A DNA stretch of 64,000 nucleotides from a virus (IMGVR_UViG_3300045125_000119:12045-76044), one strand, 5' to 3'; positions 59,805 through 60,988 are shown, counted from the stretch's first letter. Notes: generated by a model from the sequence alone, not told the origin. A program made the numbers and translations.

Positions 59805-60988
59805 TCACTCGGCGAGAACTTCAGTCACCTTGCCGGAACCAATGGTCTTGCCGCCTTCTCCGGGCTGGCGAACTTGATTCCGTTGTCGAGGGCAATTGGC
59901 TTGTCCAGCGACACCATGACTGCCACGTTTTCGCCCGGCATAACCATTTCGATCCCGTCTTGCAACTGGATCGTGCCGGTCACGTCGGTCGTTCGGAAGT
60001 AGAATTGCGGCTTGTACCCGTTCATCACGGGAGTGTGCCGCCCGCCCTCGTCCTTGCTCAAGACGTAAGCTTGAGCCTTGAACTCGGTCCGGGTTTCAAC
60101 TTGCCGTGGGGCAGAAATAACTTGCCCACGCCGAATCTGATCGGCTTTGATGCCACGAAGAAGAACGCCCACGTTCTCGCCCGCTTCCGCCACAGACATC
60201 GGGTTGTTGAACTGTTCGACGCTGGTGACGACACTTTCCAGCGTCCCCGTCAGGCCGAGAATTTCAACCTTGTCACCGGCCCGAACGTGTCCCTGTTCGA
60301 TTTTGCCGGTTGCAACCGTCCCGCGCCCTTCGATCTGGTGAACGCCCTCAATTGCCATCAGGAACGGCCGGTCGAAAGCACGAACCGGATCGGGGATGTC
60401 GCTTGTCGAGCGCATCGAGCAGTTCTTCGATGCACTTAATCTTTTCGGCGTCTTTGGGATTATCCAAAGCGGGCTTCTGCAGCACACGAACTACGGTCCT
60501 GGACTCGCCGTTGAACCCGTACTTGGTCAACAGGTCACGGACTTCCATCTCGACCAAATCGGTCAGTTCCGGGTCGGCGATGTCGCACTTGTTGATGAAC
60601 ACAACGATGTTCGGAACGCCGACCTGACGAGCCAACAGAATGTGTTCACGGGTCTGAGGCATAGGGCCGTCGGTGGCCGACAGCAATAGAATGGCCCCAT
60701 CCATTTGGGCCGCACCCGTAATCATGTTCTTGACGTAGTCGGCGTGACCGGGGCAGTCGATGTGGGCGTAGTGACGGGAAACCGTCTCGTACTCCACATG
60801 CGACGTGATGATCGTGACGGTCTTGGTTTCGTCACGCTCCGTGCCGCCCTTAGCGATGTCCCTTGTAGCCCTTGGGCTTTGCCAGCCCTTCTGCGCTGAA
60901 CCGCCAACAACGCAGCGGTCAGGGTCGTCTTGCCGTGGTCGATGTGACCGATGGTTCCGACATTAACGTGAATCTTCTTAGCTTCCAA
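59805..60988 (-). CDS. tuf: elongation factor Tu, planctomycete-type (frameshifted, probable TTG start)
   Basis: [90 protein letters not shown]. Confidence 0.97.

Follow-up and report, generated by a model that had tools for sequence, protein, structure and literature searches.

D216 and F218, two of the residues that surround the amino acid in EF-Tu, vary less than almost any others in a protein that is itself exceptionally conserved. In translation engineering, these two are mutated so that EF-Tu accepts phosphoserine, phosphotyrosine or bulky residues. An EF-Tu gene (tuf) in a virus record has both of them replaced, and it raises the questions of whether the gene is alive, where its pocket came from, and what a phage could gain from it. 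Here 'the window' refers to the whole stretch of 64,000 nucleotides analysed, which spans bases 12045-76044 of an IMG/VR virus record (IMGVR_UViG_3300045125_000119) that is 146 kb long and estimated to be 34% complete.

The phage gene and its broken frame

The EF-Tu gene lies on the minus strand of the window, between 60988 and 59805. The features that matter below are as follows, in window coordinates.

59805-60988, minus strand: phage tuf; TTG start at 60988-60986, stop at 59807-59805, 393 codons after removal of the record's indels
60402-60860, minus strand: open piece C (P0002), from switch I to the end of the G domain, with SHVEY (H66), DCPGH (H84) and NKCD
59864-60400, minus strand: open piece D (P0001), domains II and III with the remodelled pocket
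60320-60358, minus strand: pocket strand (13 protein letters, not shown); E215 kept; D216G, F218H and S219Q
60290-60310, minus strand: TGKIEQG; T228 kept; R230K and R233Q
60203-60223, minus strand: SVEQFNN; G257S, M260Q, R262N and K263N; E259 and F261 kept
60995-61001, minus strand: putative Shine-Dalgarno sequence AAGGAAG, read from the sequence, 6 nt 5' of the TTG start
61102-61185, minus strand: tRNA-Leu(UAG), immediately upstream of tuf and within the phage tRNA region
59763-59797, minus strand: 12-bp G+C-rich inverted repeat directly 3' of the tuf stop, a putative terminator where the record is error-prone
59861-60897, minus strand: eight frame-breaking indel sites, from alignment to contigs L006 and L007; contradicted by contigs of runs X1, X3 and X5
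Near 60895-60897, 60885-60889 and 60484, minus strand: missing bases, window versus L006 and L007
Near 60860-60862, 60478, 60401, 59865 and 59861, minus strand: extra bases, window versus L006 and L007
51267-61185 and past the window end (63311-80666 of the record): tRNA cluster; its unassignable member is a 91-nt tRNA-like sequence, and several members may be duplicates

Residues were numbered by a gap-free alignment of domain II to E. coli EF-Tu. A six-frame reading puts the three pocket motifs of a preliminary description where it had placed them (minus strand, 60358-60320, 60310-60290 and 60223-60203), and the alignment confirms the substitutions that it listed, namely D216G, F218H, S219Q and those in TGKIEQG and SVEQFNN. 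The P-loop, DCPGH, NKCD, His66 (SHVEY) and GENVG (N273) are all found in the phage EF-Tu as well. The description had called the GTPase motifs, His66 and GENVG intact. They are all present, but they fall in different frames of the window because of eight indels, and the gene is not one open reading frame there. Its pieces (60988-60896, 60894-60862, 60860-60402, 60400-59864 and 59858-59808) occupy all three frames, and the EF-Tu model TIGR00485 matches three of them, in three frames, at 244, 215 and 42 bits.

The eight indels, three missing bases and five extra ones, were defined by alignment to L006 and L007, which come from Logan assemblies of two different runs. These contigs encode two intact proteins (P0003 and P0004; 393 and 408 aa) that were found in a database search and are 99% identical to the domain II-III piece. 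L006 and L007 are identical to each other across tuf, and differ from the window by a few substitutions besides the indels. The indel density is equal along the whole 10 kb that the window has in common with L006 (24-39 gap openings per 3.4-4.1 kb), and 19 of the 23 neighbouring genes shared with L006 carry frame-shifting indels in the window. Indels of 1-2 bases run throughout the record at about one per 100-170 bases, as shown for 54141-64000 (66185-76044 of the record), and where window ORFs match PHROG profiles, they do so over part of the profile length only. When contigs of four public runs were compared, Illumina runs under three studies (X1, X3 and X5) restored the 393-codon frame; X1, with a contig of 10,470 letters, may be the run behind L006.

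Because 19 of 23 neighbouring genes are equally broken and contigs from three studies restore the frame, the breaks in tuf are sequencing or assembly errors of the record. Therefore, P0003 was taken as the true product, and because the record is full of indels, reading the window at the level of ORFs needs a cleaner relative. A decaying, dead phage copy with real frameshifts would account for a frame broken eight times and for the lack of a single ORF spanning tuf. It is very improbable all the same, and was rejected, as the disruptions are record-wide, with the same density in the 19 neighbouring genes and across the 10 kb common to L006, and every site is repaired in contigs from runs of three studies. 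In addition, the pieces contain no in-frame stops, the pocket residues are unaltered, and the relatives are intact with a dN/dS of 0.19. Programmed frame changes, by +1 frameshifting or four-base decoding, gained some appeal from frame changes that at first seemed to go all in one direction. They were also rejected, and are scarcely credible, as the breaks are a mixture of three missing and five extra bases, their sites share no common motif, and near-identical phages in other assemblies encode the same protein in a single frame.

Intact P0003 has the Pfam domain order PF00009 (6-199), PF03144 (223-291) and PF03143 (297-390). It scores 577.4 bits against TIGR00485, above the equivalog cut-off of 522.4, where the cellular variants described below reach about 600 bits and the canonical copy of the same genome 653 bits. 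Its score against the SelB model TIGR00475 is 169.9 bits, below the cut-off of 242.25, and the protein ends with domain III at residue 393. By score, by three domains and by G1-G5 and His84 it is an EF-Tu of TIGR00485, while its aminoacyl pocket is not the canonical one. Because the contacts are conserved, the phage protein probably still binds GTP and aa-tRNA, delivers the latter to the ribosome and supports elongation.

The surroundings are those of a phage. Window ORFs scanned with PHROG match phage-family fragments such as an SbcC-like nuclease, a ribonucleotide reductase and a helicase. The record has 13 tRNA genes (8 Leu, 3 Phe, 1 Tyr and 1 unassignable), and all of them are within 18 kb around tuf, an arrangement of tuf and tRNAs that relatives share; Rfam detected nothing beyond tRNA over 58000-61400. 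One relative of 533 kb (G424) is complete according to CheckV (100%) and labelled 'provirus' in IMG/VR. No tsf and no other translational GTPase gene was found in this complete relative, so the phage EF-Tu would have to rely on host EF-Ts.

Several further observations concern this region and its relatives. A phage-type EF-Tu identical to that of the 533-kb relative (L004; P0012/P0013) is recorded on a 673-kb contig; set against the 533-kb 'provirus' record, this points either to an integrated element or to a megaphage whose host-like end was trimmed in error. Upstream of tuf in the 533-kb relative, one base after tRNA-Leu(GAG), lies a tRNA of 91 nt with a CUA anticodon (L004 1633-1723); it is amber-suppressor-like and is called 'Pyl' by ARAGORN, and this phage may recode TAG. 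About 1.04 kb of the window (58563-59604) is absent from L006 and L007, and interrupts the 97-codon gene that directly follows tuf (L006 5876-6169), at base 6019/6020. This insert has no Pfam or Rfam match, and may be a mobile insertion or a homing-endonuclease remnant blurred by record errors. On the other side, Pfam found nothing on the ORFs of 61250-62249, and a ClpS adaptor gene (PF02617, E 6e-20), conserved in L006, is at 62763-63092 on the minus strand, ~1.8 kb upstream of tuf.

The metagenomes that hold the sequence are from biofilters, wastewater, drinking water and activated sludge. No RNA datasets are among the listed holders; one run labelled cDNA contains the phage tuf and is probably DNA. 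In the GenBank phage collection there is no cultured phage with this type of EF-Tu, and the EF-Tu found there is host-like, with 55-61% identity, mostly in mislabelled or bacterial records.

A second-copy EF-Tu clade with an altered pocket

In mature E. coli numbering, the aminoacyl side chain is surrounded by H66, E215, D216, F218, T228 and N273 (PMC6386890). The inhibitor GE2270A contacts D216, G222, R223, T256, G257, E259, F261, R262, N273, V274, G275 and L277 (PMC8183687). Both lists agree with the earlier proposal that the changed residues line the pocket for the amino acid and for GE2270A.

The extent of the change was measured by comparing 25 sequences of one clade, delimited by the tree below, with 121 canonical EF-Tu sequences, 26 of them planctomycete. 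A signature position was one where a single residue occurs in at least 80% of the clade and in at most 5% of canonical sequences. Seven positions qualify: V104L, V105L, D216G, F218H, R230K, G257S and G296R. The counts at the pocket positions, with position 260 added, are as follows.

Position 216: canonical D in 120 of 121; clade G in 25 of 25
Position 218: canonical F in 121 of 121; clade H in 23 of 25
Position 230: canonical R in 120 of 121; clade K in 23 of 25
Position 257: canonical G in 116 of 121; clade S in 23 of 25
Position 260: canonical M in 119 of 121; clade A or Q in 25 of 25

The replacement of M260 is A in cells and Q in phages, and the clade is further marked by a short N-terminus, which starts ~6-8 positions into the EF-Tu profile. 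Not all the changes first listed for the phage protein are unusual. D216G, F218H, R230K, G257S and M260Q are, but R262N is the commonest planctomycete state (12/26), and K263N is private to the phage strain of the window, the other eight phage copies having K.

What has stayed is equally clear. All 25 clade members keep the GHxDHGKT P-loop, T61, DCPGH, the N, K and D of NKxD, the catalytic H84, the pocket residues H66, E215, T228 and N273, and the contacts to the tRNA 5' end and T stem together with T382. The GE2270A contacts G222, T256, E259, F261, V274 and G275 are kept in 25/25, and R223 and L277 in 24/25 each. The kirromycin-site residues are canonical, with Y160 in 23/25. As read from this alignment, the clade-defining changes are almost all in one functional site of an otherwise untouched EF-Tu. 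Judged in the same way, the pattern is far beyond chance, because D216, F218 and R230 are near-invariant in the 121 canonical sequences and their replacements are fixed in 23-25 of the 25 clade members.

The dN/dS is ~0.19 both among phage copies and among cellular variants, and 0.135 for the canonical tuf of the family. The clade evolves under purifying selection, and pocket changes conserved under such selection fit a changed function.

In a maximum-likelihood tree (LG+C20, quick search), 16 cellular variants and nine phage sequences form one clade within planctomycete EF-Tu (SH-aLRT 99-100), and the phage sequences are a single subclade inside it (SH-aLRT 100), values that can be overstated given the quick search and the long stem branch. 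The EF-Tu of the window groups with the cellular second copies and has G216, H218, K230, S257, the A or Q at 260 and the short N-terminus. Among the best 120 database matches, ~110 carry G216 and H218, of which 18 are of phage type (SVEQF) and ~90 cellular (SVEAF), and at least 110 sequence clusters carry the G216/H218 signature. According to the tree, the pocket changes are not of phage origin but were inherited from the cellular clade. Huge phages most likely acquired one branch of the cellular second-copy EF-Tu, once. The direction from cell to phage is indicated because the phage sequences are nested and because phage tuf has a GC3 of 0.73-0.86, clearly higher than the overall GC of 0.52-0.57 in the phage DNA around it.

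The sister lineage (SH-aLRT 97) consists of second copies in two other planctomycete genomes, which also have a short N-terminus. Their pocket differs, with D216N, G257Q and M260S, in the motifs IENVF and TQVESF. Both loci are on planctomycete chromosomes.

L167: G072:C1:6633400-6635100
L168: G192:C5:369900-371600

Because the sister lineage alters the same positions, the pocket appears to be the site of diversification. Planctomycetes, as far as the tree and these motifs tell, hold an old family of second EF-Tu genes with a diversified pocket. Outside this family, an unrelated long-branch EF-Tu-like gene of Bradyrhizobium oropedii (NZ_JACMYO010000193.1, L045) has G at 216, with the motifs IEGVQSIAGRG, TGLVERG and SIESYRK; it could represent a pocket-variant paralogue that arose separately in Alphaproteobacteria.

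If the altered residues were standard in the host lineage, the phage gene would be ordinary. A genome search gave an EF-Tu match in 276 of 301 genomes of the planctomycete phylum, mostly a single one, and every best match extracted from them is canonical (IEDVFSI.GRG, TGRIERG, GVEMF.K). Proteins from metagenome-assembled genomes named 'elongation factor Tu [Gemmataceae bacterium]' show the IEGVH, TGKIEQG and SVEAFN motifs. They are second copies, and all 26 housekeeping planctomycete copies are canonical; standard status in the host lineage, the check that the preliminary description had proposed, was thus rejected. Genome G303 has both kinds, a variant copy 74% identical to the phage protein and a canonical copy 65% identical. 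The same genome has a third, partial EF-Tu-like gene (L125, G303:C205:9-944), with 52% identity to the phage protein over residues 94-392.

An intact variant is present in 13 of 121 genomes of the family, with 69-74% identity, and 11 of the 13 also have a match of canonical level; three more of the 121 have divergent or truncated variants. About 11-13% of Gemmataceae-like genomes thus carry members of the clade, as stand-alone second copies on the chromosome. Their sites include a 7.8-Mb chromosome and contigs of 417 kb and 180 kb, and they are outside the str or secE-nusG context. MutS-like and RimO/MiaB-like N-termini were recognised by eye among their neighbours. No neighbour gene is common across 14 cellular loci, and of 15 cellular loci scanned for tRNAs, 14 have none adjacent to the variant; at the remaining one, L121, five tRNAs lie ~3 kb downstream of the variant tuf. 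These tRNAs suggested that the cellular copies could be mis-binned phage DNA. That was rejected on their siting on a chromosome and large contigs, their GC, which tracks the local genome (0.60-0.73 versus 0.56-0.71), the lack of common neighbours and the cellular-looking neighbours.

In seven genomes (G321, G323, G329, G370, G380, G399 and G400) the canonical tuf matched the query only from residue ~68-71. G380 has a full canonical ORF (L169), and the partial matches may come from the search itself or reflect an insertion behind switch I.

What the altered pocket may do

Engineered factors show what these positions can do. D216A makes the pocket larger for bulky residues, and EF-Sep and EF-pY, with the D216G equivalent and a change at F218, bind negatively charged aminoacyl groups better (PMC6386890). 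The preliminary description was correct that EF-Sep shares D216G (PMC6386890).

We consider it about an even chance that the clade is a functional, specialised second EF-Tu with an aminoacyl preference shifted by its remodelled pocket. With the carboxylate of D216 lost and the invariant F218 replaced by His, the side-chain pocket would become wider, less acidic and more polar. The contribution of each amino acid to the stability of the ternary complex would then change, to the advantage of aminoacyl groups that are bulky, acidic or poorly held for another reason. Weaker binding of pocket-directed inhibitors would come as a by-product. The phage most likely took the gene from a cell of the host lineage, and its EF-Tu, presumably served by host EF-Ts, would, together with the phage tRNAs and synthetases, maintain or bias elongation in the infected cell. 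Against a shifted preference stands that no partner tRNA, synthetase or conserved neighbour of the cellular copies was found, unlike in SelB-type systems.

A more specific proposal goes further. The clade would be a natural counterpart of EF-Sep and EF-pY for acidic, bulky, modified or mischarged aa-tRNAs, captured by phages to deliver the products of their own unusual synthetases. We regard it as doubtful, although if true, decoding would be deliberately changed during infection. A search of the 121 family genomes found no SepRS; the closest engineered analogue is therefore without its natural substrate here, and the analogy with phosphoserine delivery by EF-Sep finds no support.

The same residue changes read equally well as escape from an inhibitor, and the two readings are not mutually exclusive. 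Here the pocket changes would keep a domain-II binder off while normal aa-tRNA delivery is kept, the binder being a thiopeptide of the GE2270A/thiomuracin class, pulvomycin, or an unknown protein or peptide toxin. In the phage, translation would continue when host EF-Tu is blocked. G257S is, we assume, a GE2270A-resistance change, and R230 presumably a pulvomycin-resistance site. Three of the 12 GE2270A contacts (PMC8183687) differ, D216, G257 and R262, and D216G and G257S are clade-defining. The patchy, accessory distribution over ~11-13% of family genomes resembles that of resistance genes, and a precedent exists in Streptomyces EF-Tu3 (actEFTu2), described as a distinct, stress-expressed and antibiotic-resistant second EF-Tu (PMC4342817). 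The sole genome of the 121 with a LanB-type dehydratase, G357 (G357:C481:4387-5082), also has the variant, on another contig. This single co-occurrence has a probability of ~0.11-0.13 by chance, and as a sign of self-resistance it was rejected, one genome in 121 being too little to count. The other 12 of the 13 carriers have no LanB-type gene, and the search for biosynthetic or otherwise conserved genes beside the variant came up empty. A resistance, if there is one, would be narrow in scope, because the kirromycin-site residues are canonical. Moreover, G216, H218, K230 and S257 are almost invariant at dS ~0.9, which looks like selection for a specific state; near-invariance of the new residues over deep divergence speaks weakly for a gained, specific function and against a binding site that was simply lost. 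An inhibitor-insensitive spare, the main rival, is possible, on the unlikely side.

Less is asked of the pocket if the gene only supplies more EF-Tu, to the infecting phage and, in some condition, to the cell, with the substitutions as tolerated history and the specificity unchanged. Elongation factors are frequent in huge phages, where they are believed to keep translation going (PMC7162821), and the protein passes the EF-Tu equivalog cut-off, has all catalytic and tRNA-contact residues canonical and has no partner gene. Tolerated history sits badly with changes at invariant or near-invariant positions of 121 canonical sequences that cluster in one pocket and were then fixed under purifying selection, and with a sister lineage that alters the same positions differently. 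We judge a plain auxiliary EF-Tu unlikely. A specialised second EF-Tu with shifted aminoacyl preference is the reading that we prefer.

Comparison with known EF-Tu systems

The clade is a natural, widespread lineage that keeps alternative residues at D216 and F218 under selection. If its aa-tRNA preference is altered, it would give a direct handle on the evolution of EF-Tu specificity, bear on how phages tune decoding and offer a ready scaffold for genetic-code expansion. If it is inhibitor-insensitive, it would point to unknown EF-Tu-directed antagonists in planctomycete habitats.

A literature search brought up no description of an EF-Tu paralogue with an altered pocket from planctomycetes or phages. 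EF-Tu genes as such were already known in huge phages (PMC7162821). In 2015, a survey of translational GTPases listed a single distinct EF-Tu-like subfamily in bacteria, which is actinomycete (PMC4342817); the planctomycete clade would therefore be a second. It is a previously undescribed second-copy EF-Tu lineage, carried by a very large phage of planctomycetes.

Canonical EF-Tu (TIGR00485; e.g. PDB 1OB2, 1TTT and 1D8T) has the same three domains, with ~57-61% identity and a gap-free domain II, and the same G motifs, H84, H66, E215, T228, N273 and contacts to the tRNA 5' end and T stem. The phage form differs in its short N-terminus, in V104L, V105L, D216G, F218H, R230K, G257S, M260Q and G296R at positions that are 96-100% conserved, and in the location of its gene, in a tRNA region rather than in the str or secE-nusG context.

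Streptomyces EF-Tu3/actEFTu2 (tuf3) is likewise a divergent, dispensable second EF-Tu with a patchy distribution beside a normal tuf. On the other hand, the clade described here branches within planctomycete EF-Tu, its changes are limited to the domain-II pocket with a canonical kirromycin site, and it is also phage-borne. Its placement inside planctomycete EF-Tu argues for an origin independent of actEFTu2, which was compared by its description.

EF-Sep, EF-Sep21 and EF-pY share the D216G equivalent and a replaced F218, by Y or G in the engineered factors and by H in the clade. The engineered changes open and de-acidify the pocket (PMC6386890), but they extend to H66, E215, T228 and N273, which the natural clade keeps. 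Nature already offers EF-Tu relatives reserved for a single aminoacyl group, the Ser-specific EF-Tu2 of nematode mitochondria and SelB (cited in PMC4342817); the phage EF-Tu of 393 aa differs from them in having neither a C-terminal extension nor a SECIS-binding domain.

The closest setting is that of the elongation factors of huge phages (Al-Shayeb et al. 2020, PMC7162821), where EF-Tu is also found next to tRNAs and synthetases, and the relatives of the present phage are of such size, 533 kb and possibly 673 kb. In that work phage EF-Tu is treated as generic elongation support, whereas the phage EF-Tu described here derives from a specialised cellular paralogue and not from a housekeeping tuf.
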